NCBI RefSeq assembly: GCF_036588685.1 | Contig: NC_086386.1 | Coordinates: 9,052,001-9,116,000 of the forward strand | Length of the DNA stretch: 64,000 bases | Direction of reading: 5' to 3' | DNA from: Mytilus trossulus | Lineage: Eukaryota | Program-made: the position numbers and the translations under genes | Shown here: piece after piece, positions 7,097 through 20,225 of the stretch | Layout: every line of letters starts with the position of its first letter | Position numbering within the stretch: the stretch's first letter is position 1 | Notes under the pieces: generated by a model | What the model saw: only the letters and a program-made list of their open reading frames with translations | What the model was told of the DNA's origin: nothing | The model's database searches: none

Positions 7097-10000
7097 CAGT
7101 GTATATAAAGTGCAAATCCAGCTAGTTTATTTTCACTGTTATATGCGGGTATGTCTATTGTAGATTAAAGGATCATTTGTTTACGTTTTAAAAATACCAA
7201 ATCAATTGATTTGAAGGAAAGTTTTTACATATTTTCATTTTGGTATGTCTATATTATGTATAAACATAGCATTAAATAAAATTGAGAAAGGAAATGGTGA
7301 ATATGTCAAAGCGACAACCACCCGACCATAGAGCAGACAACAGCCGAAGTTCACATAAGTGTTATAAAAGCAACATAATATAGCATTTCGATTATTGAAA
7401 GCGATCCATTTTAACTATAGATGCGATGAATTATCACTGTTATTGCAGTCATTTCTGATGTGGAATTGTCGAAGATGCGAAGAATTTTAATTGTAGAATT
7501 ATGTGATAAATGCACTTGAAACAAATGCAAAAACTTAGTTGATGACTTGATAATTTATGATAAATGTATTTTCAAATTGAAATACAAACTCCTCGTTCAT
7601 TCTTATCAAATATATAGCTTTTCAAACTTGTAACAAAAACGCTTCTCAAAATGTCATATTGTATTCTTCAAATTACGTTTTTCCTTGATTTATAAAAAAA
7701 TTCAGTCTGTGTAAAACTGAGACGAGTACATTTGAGGACGTTATCTTCCACGCAATACATACACTTGCGAACAGAGAAATGTGCATCTTGAAACACAATG
7801 GTGACAGAAAAGCTTATATACGATTAACTTTCCCATTTGTACCCTCAACTGCTTCAATTTCCATATTCTGAAAAAAATAGTTTTTGGTAGAATAAATGTT
7901 TTTGACTCGATTGTTGCTTGCATGATTTTTACTGTTTAAGGTGAAACGGTATGTGACATAAATTATCCACAGTCATTAAAACATGAAATGTAAGATGTGT
8001 GGAAGAACTTTTTTGTTTGCATTGGTACGTGACGTAGAGCACCCAAAACATTATCCGTAATGCACAGCTCGATAACAGAGGAGGATTTAGGGGGAACAGG
8101 GGGTTGCCCCCTTTTTGGGAAAACATTTGGTTACTTTTATTTGGAATCACTGGAGCGGGCCCCCTCTTAGGCAGTCATTGGGCCCCTACTTATGAAAATT
8201 TCTAGATCCGCGAGTGGATACTACCACAGAGGTCAAGCAATGCACATTTGGGTAATTGTACACGACATGCATGCCACAATTCTAGTTTGATGATCTTAGA
8301 CCCTTTGGACCTCACTGTGGGTTAAGTCCGTCACTTAGCAAAAAAAATCCCCAAACTTGATACACGGTTAGATTCAGCATATCAGAGAACCCCAAAAATC
8401 AATAAGGACCTTTGTCTATAAATTTGGAGATCACAAACTTGAAAAAGGGACCAAAAATATAAAAATACATGAATGGGATACATTTTTTATTGAAGGCATG
8501 ACTGTAACAATAGGATGAAGATAAATAAATATCTTATTCTGGGATCTCATTGGGTTTTTTAGGGGGGGGTTATGATCCCTGATCCCGCTTACTGTTTTGT
8601 CAGATTCCCGTATCCCGCTTATACTATGCAGTTCTCATTTTTTGAAATGATCCGTGTCCCTAATTGTGACTGTTTATTTAACGCATCATGTAAATATAAC
8701 GGAATTTGATGAGACTTTTATTAAAGTGAGAGGGTTAGCGCTATAGAACCAGGTTTAATCCACCATTTTCTACATTTGCAAATGCCTGTACCAAGTCAGG
8801 AATATGACAGTTCTTGTCCATTCGTTTTTGATGCGTTTTGTTATTTGATTTTGCCATGTATTATGGACTTTCCTAATTGATTTTCCTCTGAGTTCAGTAT
8901 TTTTGTGATTTTATTTCTTTCCGCTATACTTAATTTCCCGTTTTCACGACACAGCCATTTGACAATCCCGCGTCACGCTTATATCCCAACGTTACCCACT
9001 ATTCCACTCTTTTCTGACTCATATTTAGCCCATTATAAATATATTAAAAAAGTAGTGTTTTTTTTTGTCCCTTTTAATCCCGTCTCGTTTCGGTTCGAGT
9101 CATAGATAGATAAGATGTCATATATGAAAATGAGACAACTCTCCATCCGAGTCACAATTTATAAAAGTATACCTTTATACGTCAAAATACGGTCTTCAAC
9201 ATGGAGTCTTGGCTCACACCTAACAGCAAGTTTTAAAGGGCCCCAGTCTAAAACCTTTTAAACAGGAAAACCAACGATTCAAAGTATATCAAGATGTACG
9301 TAATTAGTGGTGAAGTGTTATGGAAATGGATAAAAAAAAACAAGGATAAAGATCCCTATACGATTTATAAGGAATTAAATGGAATACATTTGAAGTAAAT
9401 GTTATTTCTATTGAATTTATTTAGAATGTTTTAAAACCAAACTTTCCTCCTTAAGTTAAATTTTATCAAATCCGTCTCTTACTTTATCTATTGTTTTAGC
9501 AAGTCGGCTAAATTAAGGCTTTACACCTAATTTCCTAATGCATGTAAAGCAAAACTTTGGTTGACTTGCTCGCTTTGTTTGTATAATTGTTTATACAAAC
9601 TTTATAAATAAGATTGACATATTTAAACAATATGTATCGGCATAGTTTAACCTGTATTTATATAATTATAATATTTGAATTAGATTGGGTGTTGTCATAA
9701 TGATTGTACAATAAAAAAAACTAAAGGAAGCACGCTAACTAAAGTATTGATTTACATGCTTAAAAAAATACGCTGTAATAGATAAAAAAAAAATTCATAC
9801 AGTGAAAATGCTCCGCATATACAATACTAATGAATCGCTCTACAGTGAAAATGAAAGAATAGTATCATTATTCGACAGTAAACATGACTCGCATAAAGAA
9901 AGCATCATATTGTAATTCAGTTCAATATGAAGAAACTGAATGACAAAATCTATTCTACGTTAGACAACTTTAATAATTGTGTTGAAATGAATATTTTTTC

Positions 10001-10307
10001 TGCAACAACATCTTACCTGTTAGTTATAAAACACCTGCACGATCTGTTCGTGAAATGTCCTAAATATTCACCTATTTTGGTATATATTTCACAGCTATTT
10101 GACTTAAGGTGCGAAAAAAACCCGTTCGCATCTCTTACTTTGTTTTATTAGTATCATGTAATTCTTAACATATACATTTTAACTCATTTTCTTCATTTTC
10201 TTAAAAAATAAATAAAAAAGTCGTCTGTTTATTTATCATTCTACATCAGAAATTTCTGGCATATAAAGTGAAAATGATATTTTAGGATCCGCACTTTACA
10301 TACACTG
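7097..10307. mobile_element. Non-autonomous TIR element, copy 1 (CAGTG termini, 5-bp TSD; hAT5-like)
   Basis: 23-bp imperfect TIR CAGTGTATATAAAGTGCAAATCC / GGATCCGCACTTTACATACACTG; TSD GTAAG at 7092-7096 and 10308-10312; colinear with 13352-15680. Confidence 0.85.
8076..8216. mobile_element. Small MITE nested in hAT5-like copy 1
   Basis: cagaggaggatttaggggg ... ctagatccgcgagtg imperfect TIR; flanks GATAA / GATAC. Its right half is also present in copy 2 (about 13900-13986). Confidence 0.45.
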
Positions 10308-10444: not shown

Positions 10445-10860
10445 AAACGTTCAATCTGGAAACTGACCAAAATCCGCTCATACTGTTACTCAGTTCTGTA
10501 GTAAAGGAATTGCAGAATTTCTGCTACGTATTCAAAGATTTCGATTGCGCCTTTTGAGATTTGATTCCACAATTGAGCACGTACCAGGTAAGGAATTGAA
10601 TACCGCAGATACATTGTCTAGACAAGTCCAAGTCGAATGAATTAAAGACCGAGACAAAAGCGTACAGACGACGTGTGCGACCATTTTCTGAAGTAAAACC
10701 AAACGATCGCGTTTGGGTTAAAGATCAAAGGAAACAGAGAACAATCAAAGACGAATCTAATGAACTGCGTTCGTATATAACTGAAACCAAAATTGCTAAA
10801 AATACTTTTGAAACAGTCCCAGATGATAATCAATTCAAAATAATGAACTGCAAGATACAC
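10445..10860 (+). pseudogene. Gypsy pol remnant (RNase H end fused to integrase C-terminus)
   Basis: FNLETDQNPL (degenerate TDHKPL), IEHVPGKELNTADTLSR, then RPFSEVKPNDRVWVKD...RSYI. Confidence 0.65.
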
Positions 10861-13351
10861 AATAGATCAATCTGGGAAGACATCAGGGTCACGACATAGG
10901 TTTATCATAAAATGTAAGTTCTTAACAGATCCTAGTAACTGTTATTATCTTTATATGAGAACTGTTTCTAAATCAACATCACGTGCGTACTTAAAACTTA
11001 ACAAGTTAGCATATACGATATTAGATTACAATAAAACATATGTAAATATATAAAACGAGTATATTATTTGCCTCGCCAATATAACAATTATTCAAATTGA
11101 CGTCTTTTAAACAAGGTTATGCCTTTACTGTCAACATTCAAGTCATTTGCATAAACAATTATTGTGACGCTACTGTATTTATAGATAGTTGGTTGCTTTA
11201 CGTCCGGTAGCAAATATTTCATGCATAATCAACCTTTAAAGAGTGTGGAAATACCTGTACAAAAAGCGTAAAGTTCTAATTCTAACTAGACGGGAGTGCA
11301 TACTTGTATGCCGCACGCACAAACAATCTGAAATCAAAACGTTTGCAACAAGAAAGTGTGGTCTTAGGACATTGTGTCACGTCAAATCATATTTCCATGT
11401 TGGTGCTCCTCTAAATTAGGCCCCAACTCTAATTTGTTATATAATTATAAATGTATTTTTCTTGAAGATGCTTCCTCATAAATTCCATTGGATAAAATTC
11501 GACGGAAAGGTGTCAAGTTATGTCATTTTAATCGAAATCTCTATTAATAAAACTTAAAAGAGATTTGACATCATCAAACATACCCTAAAGCGCTTTAGAA
11601 ATCCATCCTCTGTTAACAAAAACCACTGATCTCGATAGCCTTTAATCAAAGACACTTTCATCTTTAGATTCCCTTCCATCATCTAGATATCTGAATAAAA
11701 TAAAGGAATAGTATGTAATGACCTAGATGTATCTGTCAAACGTATACACATTTCGCAAATAAAAACCATATTAAAGAATACGAACCTAATTTTGATTAAA
11801 AATGTATTGTTTCGATTTTTCAGTCTCATTGAAATCAGGAAAATTTAAATCAATCTGATCAGTTTCTTCAGCCAAAATGTTCAGAAAAGAATTGTGGGTA
11901 TAAAAATATAGCTACACAAAATACATGTTTAGGACTCAAAAGTGCAATGGTACTCTAAAGTGCGATGGTCACGCTAAAGTACGGTGGTTTATCACGCTAA
12001 ATGCGATGACTGTTTGTTCGCTAAAGTACTATGGTTTATCACGCTGAAGTGCGAGGGACAAAAAAGGTAATATTAAAGGGCTGAAAGTACACGGATTTAT
12101 AAAAAAGAAAAAGCTAGTACAAGGTATTATGACATATTTGATAAGCTTGATAATTACCGTTTTTTTGTCGTTTTTTATTCAAATTAAGTAACATAAAAAA
12201 TATATATCAACAGCAGCAGTTTGATGCTCTAAACCTATATAGTTTTAAAGAAAAATAACGTAACATGTTTCAAGTAAAAAAAAAACATCTTCTGATGACG
12301 TCATGGTCAACTATGACGTCATTTTTCTGGGCGTAAAGTTAATGATGGACGACGGCGATTCGGGATCCGAATATGAATCGGACATACATATTTCAGACTC
12401 TGAATCAGAGGGAGATGAAGAACTGGATGAAGGAATTCCCATGAATAGGGGACCGTGGTTCCCTGTATTAGATCCAGGGACTTTTTCATTGCCGGAACCA
12501 AATTTTCATGAACAAACTGGACCGGTAAATTTTCTGTCAAATTCAACAATTTTGGATTACTATATGAAATTTATAGACATGCCGGGGAGAAGTGTTATCG
12601 ACCTGTTAGTTGCCGAAACAAATCGATATGCCACCCAGTGCATTGATTAAAAAAGTCGACCCCCAAGAGTAGTGCCAGAGTTTGCACGATTGAAGAATTG
12701 GACTTCTGTGACACGCCAGGAAATTCTGGCATTTGTTGGACTAGTTCTTTCCATGGGAGTTGTTAAGAAACCTACATATGAGTCATATTGGGAGAACAAT
12801 CCTAGATCATGGTCTATGGAAACACCAAATTTTGCCCAAGTAATGTCTAGAAATAGATTCCATGCTATCTTGCAGTTTTTGCACTGTAACAACAACGAGA
12901 CAGCAGTGCCACATGACCAACCAGGCTACGACCAACTCCACAAAATCAGTCCTGTTATAGACATTTTAAATCAGACATTTTCAAAAAATTACAGGTACAT
13001 GTACGATAAATAAAGTGTGCGATAGTACTTTTTGGTTCAAGAGAATACAATACATCTTAAGTTATTAGGAGAGTGAAGATATTATATATGTTGTTAAAGA
13101 ATGAAAATTTTATTACATTGTAAATAGGAAAAAAGACATTGATTTCAAATTTACACATTTCTCACATTTTATTACATTGTGTAACCAGAAACACATAATA
13201 CATTAGCCTTGACTTTGTGTATAAAACTTGTCCAAAGTTAATAACAATGTTGTCATTACTGCGATGAAACAAATGAAAGTGGGCAAGAAATTAAATCTAA
13301 AAAATATATATCTGTTTACATGTTTTTTTTAATTTAAATATATACACTCTA

Positions 13352-15680
13352 CAGTGTATATAAAGTGCGAATCCATCTAGTTCATTTTTACTGTTATATG
13401 CGGGTATGTCTATTGTAGAATAAAGGATCATGGGAAAACTGTATTTGTTTACGTTTTGAAAATATCAAGTTAAAGGATTTTAAATTAAGTTTTAACATAT
13501 TTTCATTGTGATATGTCTTTATAATATACAAACAAAGCATTAAAGTTAAAATAAGTGTTATAAAAGCATCATAATATAGCATATCGATTATTGAAAGCGA
13601 TCCATTTTAACTATAGATGCGATGAATTATCACTGTTAGTGCAGTCATTATTTATGTAGAATTTTCAAAGATGCGAGGAATTTTTATTGTAGAATTATGT
13701 GATAAATGCACTTGCAACAAATGAAAAAAAAACTTAGTTGATGACTTTAGGATTTATGATACATGTATTTTCAAATTGAGATACAAACTACTCATTTATT
13801 CCTTATCAAATATATAGCTTTTCAAACTTGTAACAAAAGCGATTCTCAAAATGTCATATTGTATTCTTCAGATTACGTTTCTCCTTGATTTTAACTTATA
13901 TAGGGAATCACTGGAGCGTGACAGCAGCGGGCCCTCTTAGGAGTCAATGGGCCCCTACTTATGAAAAATTCTAGATCCGCGAATGGATACTACCGCAGAA
14001 GTAAAACCATGCACATTTGGGTTATTGTACACGAAATGCATGCTACAATTCATTTATGTTGATTTTAGACCTTTGGAACTCTATGTGGGCTATTTCAGCA
14101 ACTAGGCAAAAAATCCCAAAACTAGATACACGGTTAGATTCAGCATGTTAACGAATTCCAAATATCTACATTAAAGGACTAGCTATAAATTTGGACCCCA
14201 CAAAATTGAAAAGGGACCAAAAATATAAAAAAAAATGCATGCATCGGATACATTTGTTATTGAAGGCATGACTGTAACAATAGGATGAATATACAAAAAT
14301 ATCTTATTCTGGGGTTTCATTGGGGGGTTCTGATCCCGGATCCCGCTTACTGTTTTGGCAGATTCCCGTATTCCGCTTATTATTTTGTAAGATTCCCGTA
14401 TCCCGCTTATACTAAGCAGTTCTATTTTTTTGTAATTATCCATGTCCCGCTAGACTTCATTTCCCGTTTTTCACTACACAATCATTTGACTTTCACCTGT
14501 CACGCTTGCAAAATGAGACAACTCTCCATCCGAGTCACAATTTATAAAAGTAGACAATTATACGTCAAAATACGGTCTTCAGCATGGAGTCTTGGCTCAC
14601 ACCGAACAGCAAGTTATAAAGGGCTCCAGTGTAAAACCTTTCAAACGGGAAAACAAAGGTGCAATCTATTTCAAGATGTACGTAATTAGCGGTGAAGTGT
14701 AATGGAATTGGATAAAAAAAAAATAAGGATAAAGATCCCTATACGCTTTATAAGAAACTAAATGGAATACATTTGAAATAAATGTTATTTCTATTGAATT
14801 TATTAGAGTGATTTAAAACCAAACTTTCCTCCGTAAATTAAATTTTATCAAATCTTTCTCTTACTTTATCTATTGTTTGAGCAAGTCGGCTAAATTAAGG
14901 CTTTACAGCTAATTTCCTAATGCATGTAAAGCAAAACTTTGGTTGGCTTGCTTGCTTTGTTTGTATAATTGTTTATACAAACTTGGTAAATAAGATTGAC
15001 ATTTTTAAACAATATGAATAGGCATAGGTTAACCTGTATTTTTAATATATGAATTAAATTGGGTGTTATCATAATGATTATCCAATAAAAAAACAGCAAG
15101 CAAATCAACTAAAGTCTTGCTCTACATGCTTAAAGAAATGAGCTGTAATAGATAAAAAAATAAATAATTATACAGTGATAATGCACCGCATATACAATAA
15201 TAATGATTCGCTCCACAGTGAAAATGAAAGAATAGTATGATTATTCGACAGTAAACATGACTAGCATTACGAAAGCATCATAGTGGAATTGAGTTAAATA
15301 TGAAGAAACTGAATGAGAAAACATATTCTACGTTATACAACTTTAATAATTGTATTAAAATGAATATTTTTTACTGCAACAACATCTCACCTGTTAGTTA
15401 TAAAGCACCTGCACGATCTGTTCGTGAAATGTCCTAAATATTCACCTATTTTGGTATATATTTCACAGCTGGATGGCTTTCGGTGCGATAAAACCCCGCT
15501 CGCATCTCTAACTTTGTTTTATTAGTATTATGTATTTCTGAACCTATACATTTTAACTAATTTTCTTCATTTTCTTCAAAAATTAAAAAAAGTTCGTCTG
15601 TTTATTTATCATTCTACATTAGACATTTATGGCATATACAGTAAAAATGATATTTTAGGATCCGCACTTTACATACACTG
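13352..15680. mobile_element. Non-autonomous TIR element, copy 2 (hAT5-like), in intron 1 of the piggyBac gene
   Basis: Same TIRs as 7097-10307; different TSD CTCTA at 13347-13351 and 15681-15685. Confidence 0.85.
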
Positions 15681-17586
15681 CTCTACGCGTGCATCTGTAA
15701 CAACGATTTTTTTTTATTCAAAAACGTAAAGTTTGCTTTGAATATTTAAAAAAAATCACCTACTGTTATTATTCTTATATTTTTACAGACTTAACCAGGA
15801 TGTTTGTGTAGATGAAAGAGTTGTGGGATTTAAAGGCCGACATCAGTTAAAGCAATATTTGTCCAACAAAAAGGCACATAAATGGGTGATTAAATTGTGG
15901 GTTTTAGCGGAATCCTACACCGGTTACACCCACCAGATTAAAGTATACAAGGGTAGACGAAACGAAGCAAGAAGTGAAAATGGACAGGTAAGGTCAATTA
16001 TTGCATGTTGTAACTTTTTTGAAATTTAAAGTTCCTTTACTATATATTTTTTTCAAGATTAAATTCAATAAATGGGCATAACGCGGCATAGTGATAGCAT
16101 ATAGTTATGTTTTTAGAAATAATATACTTCCCTTGTCCATATTTTATATATTATCTTGAAATCAATCTAACAGCCGGTCACCGTGAAACACTTTTCGGTA
16201 AACCAGCCTTCGTTTTGCCTAATAGAATCACTTGTTCGTGTTTATCCCCTGTTTATTTCAATATATATTTTCAGGATCTATTGAATAAAATTAGTGGCTT
16301 AAACTTCAATATTCTCGTGGGATTTTCTCGCTGTATTAAAGACCCATTTGTGACCTTCGGTTGTTTTCTTTTGTTTGGTAGGGTCATTGTCTCTTTGACA
16401 CACTCTCCATTTTCATTCTCATTTTTTCTTACACGCCAGGACTTCACAAATAAAAACATATAAACTCAAAGCATTGTTTTTTCAGGGGTACCAAGTAGTG
16501 ACAGAGTTGATGACACCTCATTTAAACAGAGATCATCATGTTACAGTTGATAGTTTCTTTACAAGTCCCAAATTGGTACATGATTTGAAAGATAAGGGTA
16601 CATTCTGCACAGGAACTGTAATTAAAACCAGACGTGGCATGCCAAAAAGCTACCGCACTGCTAAACTTCAAAAAGGAGACATGACAGTGAAATATCAGGG
16701 ACAACTCATGGCAGTTGTATGGGCAGATCGCAGACTTGTAACCATTCTTACAACAACTGGCTCTGCAAGGTAAATTTAAACGTATATTAGATACATGTAT
16801 TTTTATTTTAAAATACAAATATTGGATATGATCGCCTATGAGACAACTATCCACAAGAGAACAAATGAAGTACACAATGTTTCATCAAAGTAATGTTGAA
16901 ATTATAATCATTATAATATTATTGTTAACTTTCTTTAATGATAATTTGATCAAATATTCTATGATCGAAAATTAAAATCAATACGGTGACATATTTATTG
17001 CTGCACAAGTTTAAAATGTCGGTACAGACACCACAGAAACTTATTTCAATTGAAATAAATTAATTTTAGAACAGATGATTTTAAGCTAAAACAAATAAAA
17101 TCTGTATATTGAGTTTACTTTTTTATAAATGCATTTTCGACCTTCTTGAAAATATTTTCATGTTCTTGAAGAAAACTAAATGTTTATAAATTTGAAGCAT
17201 GATTAACACAACAAACAGTAGAGGAAGAGATTTGGCCATTCCATCCGCTGTTAAACGATATAACTTTACAATGGGTGGAGTAGATCTCGGGGATCAACTT
17301 CTCTTACAGTTCGAGCCAAATTTTAAAAGTGTGAAAATGTGGAGAAAACTACTTTTCCATCAATTAGTTACTGCTGCAGGTAAAAGATAATTTGCAAGTT
17401 TAGAATATATAAAATTAATGTTTGTCGAAAGACATTGACATATTTCTTTTTAAATAAGGAGAATGTTGATTGACAATGAAAAAACTATCAACAAAATTCA
17501 TATGAAATGGATCGATTCAAATTTTTATATATCGAAATGGATTAAAAGATAATAGAAAAGCTACATATAAACTTGTATAGTTGTTA

Positions 17587-17843
17587 CAGCAGATTTCAGT
17601 GAGTATGTAGCTAAAGGTAATCTCTTTGGTTACCTTGCTTGTTAGCTGAACCGTGAAGTCATTGTTAGGTTAGCCAAACTTCCCTCCTTTAATAGTAGAC
17701 TTGCCCAACAGAAAACCAATCTATCTCACTGTGGGACTAAGCTACTTTAAAAGGATGGTAGTATAACTTACCTAACAATAACTCCACGGTTTAGCTAACA
17801 AGCAAGCTATTACCATTAGCTACATACTGACTGAAATCTGCTG
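17587..17843. mobile_element. Tc1/mariner-type MITE in piggyBac intron 4
   Basis: TA|CAGCAGATTTCAGT...ACTGAAATCTGCTG|TA with about 80-bp imperfect TIRs. Confidence 0.75.
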
Positions 17844-20225
17844 TAAAGAAATCACATAACCTGTATAGTTGTTCAAGAAATGAAATAACCCTAATATATA
17901 TTTATCAGTCACTGGCCTTCTCTTTCATATATTTTTTCACCTGGATTTTTTTTTTCGAAATGCATTTATTTATTCGTGATTATTTCAAGAACAAAGGTTA
18001 GACACATTGTCATATGCTGAAATATTTTTTTGAAATGTTTTTTTCTATCATTTTTCTTTATATTTTTTGCGTATTTGACATGTATCTTAATCGTACAAGC
18101 CTAAATTCATTTTGTATTCAATTTTGTTTTCTTCTTTTGATTTACTCGTGGAAGACATTGGTCCGTATATTAATATGTATTATTTTTATTCTTCGTTTTC
18201 AGTTAATGCCTTCATCTGTTACAAAAGAACTTTTGTTGTTGAAACAAAGCTAGACAGGCTGGTATCACATATTTGAATAATTATTGTAGCTTGCCGTTCA
18301 CACAGTCAATCACTAATGTGAACATCTCCACTCAAAGTCGTCATTGTACAAAATTCGTTCTTATGTTTTAGCAGACAATGTATGATTTACGCATGTAAAC
18401 ATGACGTATCTTTGTTTTACCGACTTTACTTTTCATGAAAATCGACAATATTTGAAAGGGAACGGCAAAGTAAACTGAAACATAAACAATGATTTCAATG
18501 TATCCATTATCATCAAATAGAAACAGGATAAAGGTTACTTATGCGTATACTTTTGTATAGTAAGATGGTCGGCGGCAGGACAAAAGTTCTTCGTCTAGCA
18601 CCGGAAAAAAACACATTTCCTTCAGCCCACAAAACACGGTTATCATGCTTAAATTGAGTAAGTCATGGACATTTGGTTTAAAGTTGTTAATCAAATATTC
18701 TACATTTATCTTTCGGCATGTTATTTTTTGTTCACGTCATAATCCATAGTACGTTTATTACGTCTATACTTTCGCGAACCATCGCACTTTAGAGTGTGTA
18801 GGCATCGTACTTTAGCGTAAACCATCGCACTTAAGCATGACTATCGTACTTAAGCGTCCCCATCGCACTTTAAAGTCCTGCACATGTACTTACAAAATCT
18901 TCTTTTTTTATGAAAAGGCCACAAATGGGTAAATAGACGGAAAATGGGAAAATCCTTTACAAAAGTAACTTTGAAAATGTCCGTATCAAAACAAAAGTGA
19001 ACCCCATATGAATTTGATCTTCCTCAATTACTTTCTAACAGTTATACAAACCTAAACGTTGATTAAGAACAAAAGTGAATATCTAGAACATGTTTCGCTC
19101 CTCAGATGTATACATCCTTAAATATCAACAAACGCAGACAAAAAATCGAATTTTACTGCATCCAATTCTGTCTCGTCAGTGAATCTTCATTCAAAAATAA
19201 AATATAAATTGTAATTGGAAGATGTTTTTATCATGTAGTGTCTCAAGTTGACTCTCAACTTTGTACTAAATTTGTCATTTTAACCTATGACCTTATGAAG
19301 ACGAAAACGCACGTCTAGTGCACAAAATAACATCCCTAGTATCTACGATAAGTTTTTAAAGGAATTGAATTCCAATTGTTAAACATTTGTATTGAAGGAA
19401 AAACCAAATGAAATATATTTTTTCAGGAAACAACAACACTTAACATACTTATTATGTAATCAGTATATTTTAGCAAAAAAGGGGCAAGTTACTTTTTCAA
19501 TAATTTCGTTCGTGGTCCGTAGTCATTCATCTTCTTCGTCCGTTATAACCTTAGTATAAACTTTCTTCACAAAAAATATGGCATTTTTAGCATTTTCGAA
19601 TATTAAAGACAAATAAAAAAGGGAGTACTAGTAAAACCCATTTTATTTAAAGAGTTCAACAGAAGATTAGAGGTTGATTCAACAGATTTTTAATAAAAGT
19701 AAGATGAAAACTGGGATTTCTATAAAATAACCTCACATCAAAATGTGCATCAAGAGTGACGTTCGATTCACTTAATGTTTTCACAGTTTTTTGTGCGCCC
19801 CATAAACTGCAAATTGACATTGGTCATGGATTTACAGATCTGTTATTTGACTTGTGAATAAGCTACTAAGTAATCATGATTGATTTTATTGCAATGATTA
19901 AGAAATAATTACGACAAGTTGAACAACAGACACCTAGTAACATGTATATCCATGTTAAAACTAAAGTGGCTAAAAATTATTCTTGTATTTGTGTCAATTG
20001 CGTTTTATAGTGATTGAGATTGCATTACAATGTTAACTGATGTGTCCCTATTTATGACGTGTATACCTGTTATACTTGTTTGTTTTGCTTACACACTTTA
20101 TCAACATAATGAAATTCTTAGTGACTGTGAATAAAATATAATACGTTTGGTCTGAAACAATGCAATGACATCTAACAGGAGTTGTTGTCCCTAAATTGAT
20201 TCAAGTTAGGTTTAATTGATTATTA

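Follow-up and report, generated by a model that had tools for sequence, protein, structure and literature searches.

A broken piggyBac copy with a five-exon transposase in Mytilus trossulus and its intron-bearing relatives

Gene model and boundaries of the window copy

The window is a 64,000-nucleotide stretch of the Mytilus trossulus genome (NCBI RefSeq assembly GCF_036588685.1, contig NC_086386.1, positions 9,052,001 to 9,116,000 of the forward strand); all coordinates below count from its first letter unless a contig is named. Positions 12342–18276 contain a piggyBac transposase gene, which is divided into five exons by four GT-AG introns of phases 2, 0, 2, and 1, and has 463 codons followed by a stop. 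The model was built by joining the exons with a script. Spliced alignment of P0001, a 554-residue protein model from Mytilus edulis that was the best of seven matches to exon 1, placed the same four introns independently, at 96% identity. The GT donors start at 12995, 15988, 16770, and 17380, and the AG acceptors precede 15789, 16486, 17198, and 18203. An in-frame ATG at 12303 gives a start that is 13 residues longer, as in two RefSeq models. The gene belongs to an element with two further copies in the assembly, the sister copies C3 and C11, named after their contigs. Its parts are as follows.

12342..12994, plus strand: exon 1, codons 1–218
12648..12650, plus strand: premature TAA, the only internal stop of the model
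12995..15788, plus strand: intron 1, codon 218, phase 2; 460–463 bp long in the sister copies
15789..15987, plus strand: exon 2, with the first catalytic aspartate, D226, at 15811–15813
15988..16485, plus strand: intron 2, codon 285, phase 0; holds a repeat common to all three copies
16486..16769, plus strand: exon 3, with the second catalytic aspartate, D306, at 16549–16551
16770..17197, plus strand: intron 3, codon 379, phase 2
17198..17379, plus strand: exon 4, with the third catalytic aspartate, D408, at 17283–17285
17380..18202, plus strand: intron 4, codon 440, phase 1
18203..18255, plus strand: 5' remnant of exon 5

The original prediction, made from the DNA letters alone, had proposed this exon structure, the intron phases, the codon count, and the TAA at 12648, and the joined exons and the spliced alignment of P0001 bear this out. 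Its assignment of the product to the piggyBac family with an intact DDD triad also holds. The Pfam domain DDE_Tnp_1_7 matches exons 1–4 collinearly (profile positions 30–123, 119–193, 190–282, and 287–343); the frames with these exons were the four that matched among seven stretches submitted to Pfam, and the other three had no transposase match. P0001 matches the domain with an E-value of 6e-89. The triad D226/D306/D408 is intact by alignment, with 79 and 101 residues between the aspartates.

The 463-codon frame is present as predicted, but it does not end in the native C-terminus. Beyond 18255 there is no homology to the sister copies, and the last six codons and the stop come from a miniature inverted-repeat transposable element (MITE). 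Only 53 of the 347 nucleotides of exon 5 are left. In the sister copies the exon runs 97 codons further and includes a Cys-rich domain (zf-Tnp_2, above the cut-off in exon 5 of C3), which is gone from the window copy. The true protein of the family has about 554 residues. The original prediction missed both the truncation at the two ends and the nesting in a MITE.

12162..18255, plus strand: piggyBac body, 97–98% identical to C3 and C11 between exactly these points
11922..12161, plus strand: left part of an older, high-copy MITE of about 1.05 kb, collinear with uninterrupted MITE copies at 79–81%
18256..18888, plus strand: right part of the same MITE, which provides the last six codons and stop of the model
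13352..15680, strand not assigned: 2.33-kb element with terminal inverted repeats (TIRs) in intron 1 (CAGTGT...ACACTG), with a 5-bp target duplication; carries further repeats
17584..17846, strand not assigned: MITE in intron 4, shared by the three copies

The window copy lacks the left 57 bp of the element, including the TIR, and about 653 bp on the right, which comprise the 3' part of exon 5, the 3' untranslated region, and the TIR. The two flanks together make up one MITE, about 80–84% identical to uninterrupted copies; 110–120 bp of it are absent at the piggyBac junction, and as many as four TTAA sites fall in the absent stretch. Inverted repeats further out, at 11950 and 18850, were considered as piggyBac TIRs and rejected, as they are part of this separate high-copy MITE.

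C3 and C11 lack the insertion in intron 1, which is private to the window copy. Repeats within introns 2–4 are common to all three copies and thus moved together with the element; likewise, the MITE at 17584–17846 was carried by the mobile parent element. Of the insertions that the original prediction placed in introns 1, 2, and 4, only that in intron 1 is specific to the window copy. The proposal that exons are free of insertions does not extend to the family, since C11 has a 3.85-kb insertion in exon 3, which undermines the meaning of an intron-only pattern in the window.

The right half of the intron-1 insertion (14510–15680) recurs 5.4 kb upstream, at 9127–10307, as a second copy at about 90%. 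Short frames at 10467–10899 resemble a decayed Gypsy remnant of RNase H and integrase.

Sister copies, element ends, and spliced contigs

Searches of the M. trossulus genome with the 5' DNA, exon 2, and exon 3 as queries identified three copies of the family, on contigs C14 (the window), C3, and C11. Each exon query had three matches at 90–100% amino acid identity, and the next best match was at 60–73%. Both sister copies match positions 12162–18255 at 97–98%, introns included, and have unrelated flanks. The original prediction had proposed such a search for copy number and intron positions.

The left end of C3 reads TTAA followed by CCCTTTCGGCGCC, and the right end of C11 reads GGCGCTGATAGGG followed by TTAA. 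The two TIRs match at 11 of 13 positions, and the ends start with CCC and finish with GGG. Together, the two ends define a full element of about 4.45 kb. None of the three copies is intact: C3 carries a 19-bp frameshift and has lost its last 18 bp, C11 lacks its left end in addition to the exon-3 insertion, and the window copy has the stop codon and has lost both ends. The exon-3 insertion of C11 (about 7709850–7713700, L016) has TAG...CTA ends, which resemble those of Academ elements, and a 3-bp duplication. Both the window copy (12162) and C11 (about 7715780) lost their left end at one subterminal palindrome, AAAACGACA-T5-GTCGTTTT, no more than about 2 bases from its centre, and the DNA upstream is unrelated between the two copies. 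The palindrome centre is possibly a breakage hotspot.

Exons differ among the copies by 12–22 mismatches per approximately 1350 nucleotides (0.9–1.6%) and introns by 24–32 mismatches per approximately 2195 nucleotides (1.1–1.5%). There are 14 changes private to the window copy, nine of which are non-synonymous, including the stop and G251V. The ratio of non-synonymous to synonymous substitution rates (dN/dS) of the window copy relative to C11 is 0.53, based on 33 differences. The divergence, the private changes, and the dN/dS would fit recent copies that are decaying rather than paralogues under selection.

Splice junctions were identified in contigs from four runs of three studies, aligned to the C3 copy; these runs are RNA by guess only. 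Joints exactly at GT..AG were found for intron 1 in three of the four runs, for introns 2 and 3 in all four, and for intron 4 in three, so that each of the junctions proposed by the original prediction is represented. Sequencing depth is zero in the repeat-free intron bins. In contrast to these contigs, those of run X16, a large run whose kind is not on record, cross five splice sites unspliced, as DNA would. A contig from run X1 carries the sister-copy base at no fewer than 12 of the 14 window-private sites, including G at 12648, and so did not come from the window copy. The codon at the premature stop, another proposed check, reads GAA in C3, C11, the X1 contig, and 3/3 reads of run X24.

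The main X1 contig (on L019:801-3484) joins exons 1–4 and then continues for 323 nucleotides that are not placed on the element in the rows listed. Its alleles differ from those of each of the three copies. In run X4, from the same study, one form leaves the element after exon 4 and another has exon 5. The X1 contig possibly represents an expressed chimeric copy without the Cys-rich domain.

Related families with shared intron positions

Intron positions in related mussel families are given as codon and phase on P0001; except in family A, they were predicted by spliced alignment.

Family A (window): 218/2, 285/0, 379/2, 440/1
Family B (L082): 218/2, 285/2, 379/2, 440/1
Family C (L087): 95/2, 218/2, 285/2, 379/2, 440/1
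Family D (L084, L085): 218/2, 379/2, 440/1
Family E (L086): 218/2, 276/0, 379/2, 440/1
Family F (L088): 263/2, 379/2, 440/1, 506/1 (263/2, 379/2, and 506/1 also in L091)

The introns at 379/2 and 440/1 are common to all six families and the one at 218/2 to five of them. The five sister families are at 48–53% protein identity, with saturated synonymous sites. Intron 2 at codon 285 is in phase 0 in the window (15988–16485) and in phase 2 in L082 and L087, a difference for which a 2-nucleotide intron slide is a candidate explanation. Introns in the degenerate loci L095–L104, L089, and L091 were counted only if a cleaner copy had one at the same position, since decayed sequence leads the aligner to call spurious introns. 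An intron predicted at codon 54 of L082 was rejected, as L095 of the same family is continuous there, and N-terminal introns predicted in L109 and L110 were ignored since they lie in an unalignable acidic tail.

Complete elements are present among these families. L084 and L085 are 4.25-kb twins on different contigs, 98.7% identical, with TTAA and TIRs at both ends and open three-intron frames. L086 is complete at 4.8 kb, with TTAA and TIRs at both ends and an open four-intron frame. As an intronless control, seven loci of six distant families (L090, L105–L110; 32–37%) align with an intron-free core. The same genome harbours a number of multi-copy intronless piggyBac families whose frames are long and open (L105/L106, L107, L108, L109, and L090).

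In a quick tree of 30 rows, a branch with a Shimodaira–Hasegawa-like approximate likelihood ratio test (SH-aLRT) value of 99 has all six intron-bearing elements on one side. The distribution of introns among six intron-bearing and six intronless elements requires one change on the tree, a number as low as that being obtained in 0/500 shuffles. A second quick tree contained 72 rows. The intron-bearing branch also includes two Haliotis proteins, one from Argopecten, and one from Saccostrea. The scallop model ends at codon ~379, the similarity of the oyster model ends at ~436–440, five proteins that match exon 1 (47–73%) cease matching at ~218–225, and a M. californianus model starts within intron-1 sequence. 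These limits may be indirect hints of intron positions. A metagenome scan for relatives gave three loci from 254 candidate stretches, all at 29–30% identity, and no outside evidence of introns. The predicted gene structures point to a multi-intron mobile piggyBac clade of molluscs, which is apart from the six intronless piggyBacs of the same genome.

The TIR pattern of the window family has 35 matches in the genome search, compared to 0 for the control. Loci L072–L081 are mostly 4–5-kb TTAA-flanked elements (range 1.0–12 kb) with the ends of the window family. The nine TIR-bounded elements examined have TTAA on both sides (9/9), share about 160 and 125 bp of their ends with the window family, and are 86–96% alike over most of their length. 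No transposase was detected in these nine elements (1.0–12 kb) by tblastn, and nine open reading frames (ORFs) from one of them had no Pfam match above the cut-off. The L072–L081 elements have no long ORF. The nine are likely non-autonomous partners of the window family.

Interpretation and comparison with known systems

Very probably, the window contains a dead, end-less copy of a mussel piggyBac family that was likely mobile recently and whose transposase is split by four spliceosomal introns. Three dispersed copies at 97–98% identity, TTAA ends in the sister copies, and equal exon and intron divergence indicate a recently mobile piggyBac and not a domesticated gene. From the intact element of about 4.45 kb, host transcription and splicing would yield the message for a DDD transposase of about 554 residues with a C-terminal Cys-rich domain, and the putatively active enzyme would cut the element and paste it into TTAA sites. 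Transposition proceeds from DNA to DNA, so the introns would travel with each copy, together with the MITEs inside them. In the simplest history, the window copy probably inserted at a TTAA of the older MITE, then would have lost both ends by deletion, gained the 2.3-kb insertion in intron 1, and now presumably decays neutrally.

The original prediction had left the choice between an intron-rich mollusc piggyBac family, which is the alternative that stands, and a damaged copy of a domesticated gene. A domesticated, intron-bearing host gene of the PGBD type, with a damaged paralogue in the window, could account for the spliced transcripts in three studies and for the full-length models of 554–567 residues in M. 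edulis and the 92–97% relatives, which automatic annotation calls PGBD4-like, in four other Mytilus species; the multi-intron piggyBac genes in the literature passages available, PGBD5, PGM, and TPB2, are the domesticated ones. We nevertheless consider such a gene very improbable: the sister copies have TIRs and TTAA, the copies are dispersed with unrelated flanks, exons and introns diverge equally, all three local copies are broken, M. edulis has two distinct full-length RefSeq loci on different sequences, and the related families are complete transposons. It is hardly conceivable that the introns are later insertions into an intronless transposase ORF with GT-AG borders arising by chance. 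Most mobile piggyBacs are intronless according to the available part of PMC3902484, as are the six distant elements in the same genome, and the introns contain repeats; however, the joints in the RNA-like contigs fall exactly at GT..AG, which refutes this explanation unless those runs are not RNA, and identical positions and phases recur in families with saturated synonymous sites.

A further possibility accepts the family as a transposon and concerns only the history of the window copy, the body of which might have entered a broken MITE as a copy made during template-switch repair, producing a 7-kb composite between MITE ends. The absence of both piggyBac TIRs, the lack of TTAA at either junction, and the presence of both MITE ends would follow from such an event. 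We regard it as unlikely, since the absent MITE segment with its TTAA sites offers the expected target, microhomology at the junctions is at most 1–2 nucleotides, and the C3 and C11 copies have no MITE flanks. Moreover, end loss is common in the family, as C3 has no right tip and the left end of C11 broke off at nearly the same base in the absence of this MITE.

Several observations weigh against a recently mobile, intron-bearing family. The assembly has no intact copy, all three being broken; a copy number of 3 is low, none of the three has both target duplications, and empty sites were not observed. The family is found at 92–97% across five Mytilus species, and a conserved host gene would give the same. 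No run on record as RNA was among those listed as containing the element. Runs X21 and X24, which are on record as RNA, cover the exons sparsely, and the 15 joints listed of 46 include no splice joint; the four runs with junctions are probably RNA, their nature being guessed. The introns of the sister families are predictions from alignment and not from RNA, and both trees are quick searches without bootstrap.

On a broader scale, the family would belong to an old mollusc clade that acquired the introns at codons 379 and 440 a single time, as it probably did the one at 218, and subsequently gained, lost, or shifted others. We put forward only tentatively, as a reading somewhat short of an even chance, that this clade is undescribed, ancient, and still mobile, that the introns were gained once before or across the bivalve–gastropod split, with three kept over saturating divergence and others (95/2, 263/2, 276/0, 285/0 versus 285/2, and 506/1) gained, lost, or slid, and that the introns shelter nested repeats. 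If so, introns in a piggyBac gene would be no sign of domestication, and PGBD5-type genes could descend from intron-bearing elements. The window copy by itself is an ordinary dead fragment. The mollusc clade as a whole offers a compact system for the study of intron gain, loss, and sliding.

In the literature passages available, multi-intron piggyBac transposases are domesticated, the mobile ones having no intron or a single small one. PMC3902484 names PGBD5 and the ciliate piggyMacs as the exceptions among mostly intronless piggyBacs, and the accessible portion of PMC5381638 records introns in the domesticated genes PGBD5, PGM, and TPB2 and describes mobile elements with TTAA and short TIRs. 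The mussel elements of mobile type, with TIRs, TTAA duplications, and three to five introns at shared positions, one family of which was seen spliced, weaken the equation of introns with domestication for piggyBac. Literature searches gave no account of a mobile mollusc piggyBac with several introns; entries in Repbase and Dfam were outside the search and one may exist, so the novelty of the clade is provisional. The words "intron" and "exon" are absent from the available text of PMC10813416. A survey of bivalve transposable elements mined transposases from ORFs of at least 300 residues, according to the part of PMC10294476 consulted, a blind spot for the window family, the longest coding exon of which has 218 codons.

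The mussel family resembles piggyBac-like elements (PBLEs), including Trichoplusia ni piggyBac (PDB: 6x67) and piggyBat (PDB: 9c0f), in the TTAA target and short TIRs starting with CCC or CCY. These two are the nearest solved structures, with phmmer E-values of 2e-42 and 3e-24. It shares with PBLEs the DDE_Tnp_1_7 domain and DDD triad, the C-terminal Cys-rich domain (deleted in the window copy), and dispersed copies. The single uninterrupted ORF, usual but not universal in PBLEs, is replaced by five exons, the introns hold nested repeats, and the element measures about 4.45 kb, compared to a PBLE mean of 2.8 kb in the passages available from PMC5381638. Three Mytilus proteins annotated as "piggyBac transposable element-derived protein 4-like" (XP_071170435.1, XP_071134233.1, and CAG2252077.1) belong to the window's family and represent the same spliced protein, 96% identical to the window copy and 97% to each other. 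These models are automatic, and the PGBD4 name shows neither orthology nor domestication.

Pokey of Daphnia is likewise a mobile, TIR-bearing piggyBac relative, and its GT-AG intron was verified by reverse transcription PCR, according to the text available from PMC3575242. Compared by that description only, Pokey has one intron of 68–70 bp and targets ribosomal DNA, whereas the mussel clade has three to five introns of 0.2–0.9 kb across the catalytic core. PGBD5, PiggyMac, and TPB2 share with the mussel family several canonical introns within the transposase domain. In the sources as far as available, PGBD5 is single-copy and conserved, without a Cys-rich domain and with an incomplete triad, in contrast to the TIRs, TTAA ends, dispersed young copies, complete triad, and Cys-rich domain of the mussel family. 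The marks of a domesticated PGBD-type gene, namely a single copy without TIRs or target-site duplications, exons conserved over introns, and an open frame, were not found. TLEWI, a Tc1-like group of pteriomorph bivalves, is similar in its low copy number, two to five GT-AG introns with some conserved positions, and spliced transcripts, as described in the available part of bioRxiv 10.1101/656579. In that account, TLEWI is a Tc1 DD36E group without TIRs that is proposed to be co-opted, whereas the mussel elements keep their TIRs and TTAA duplications.

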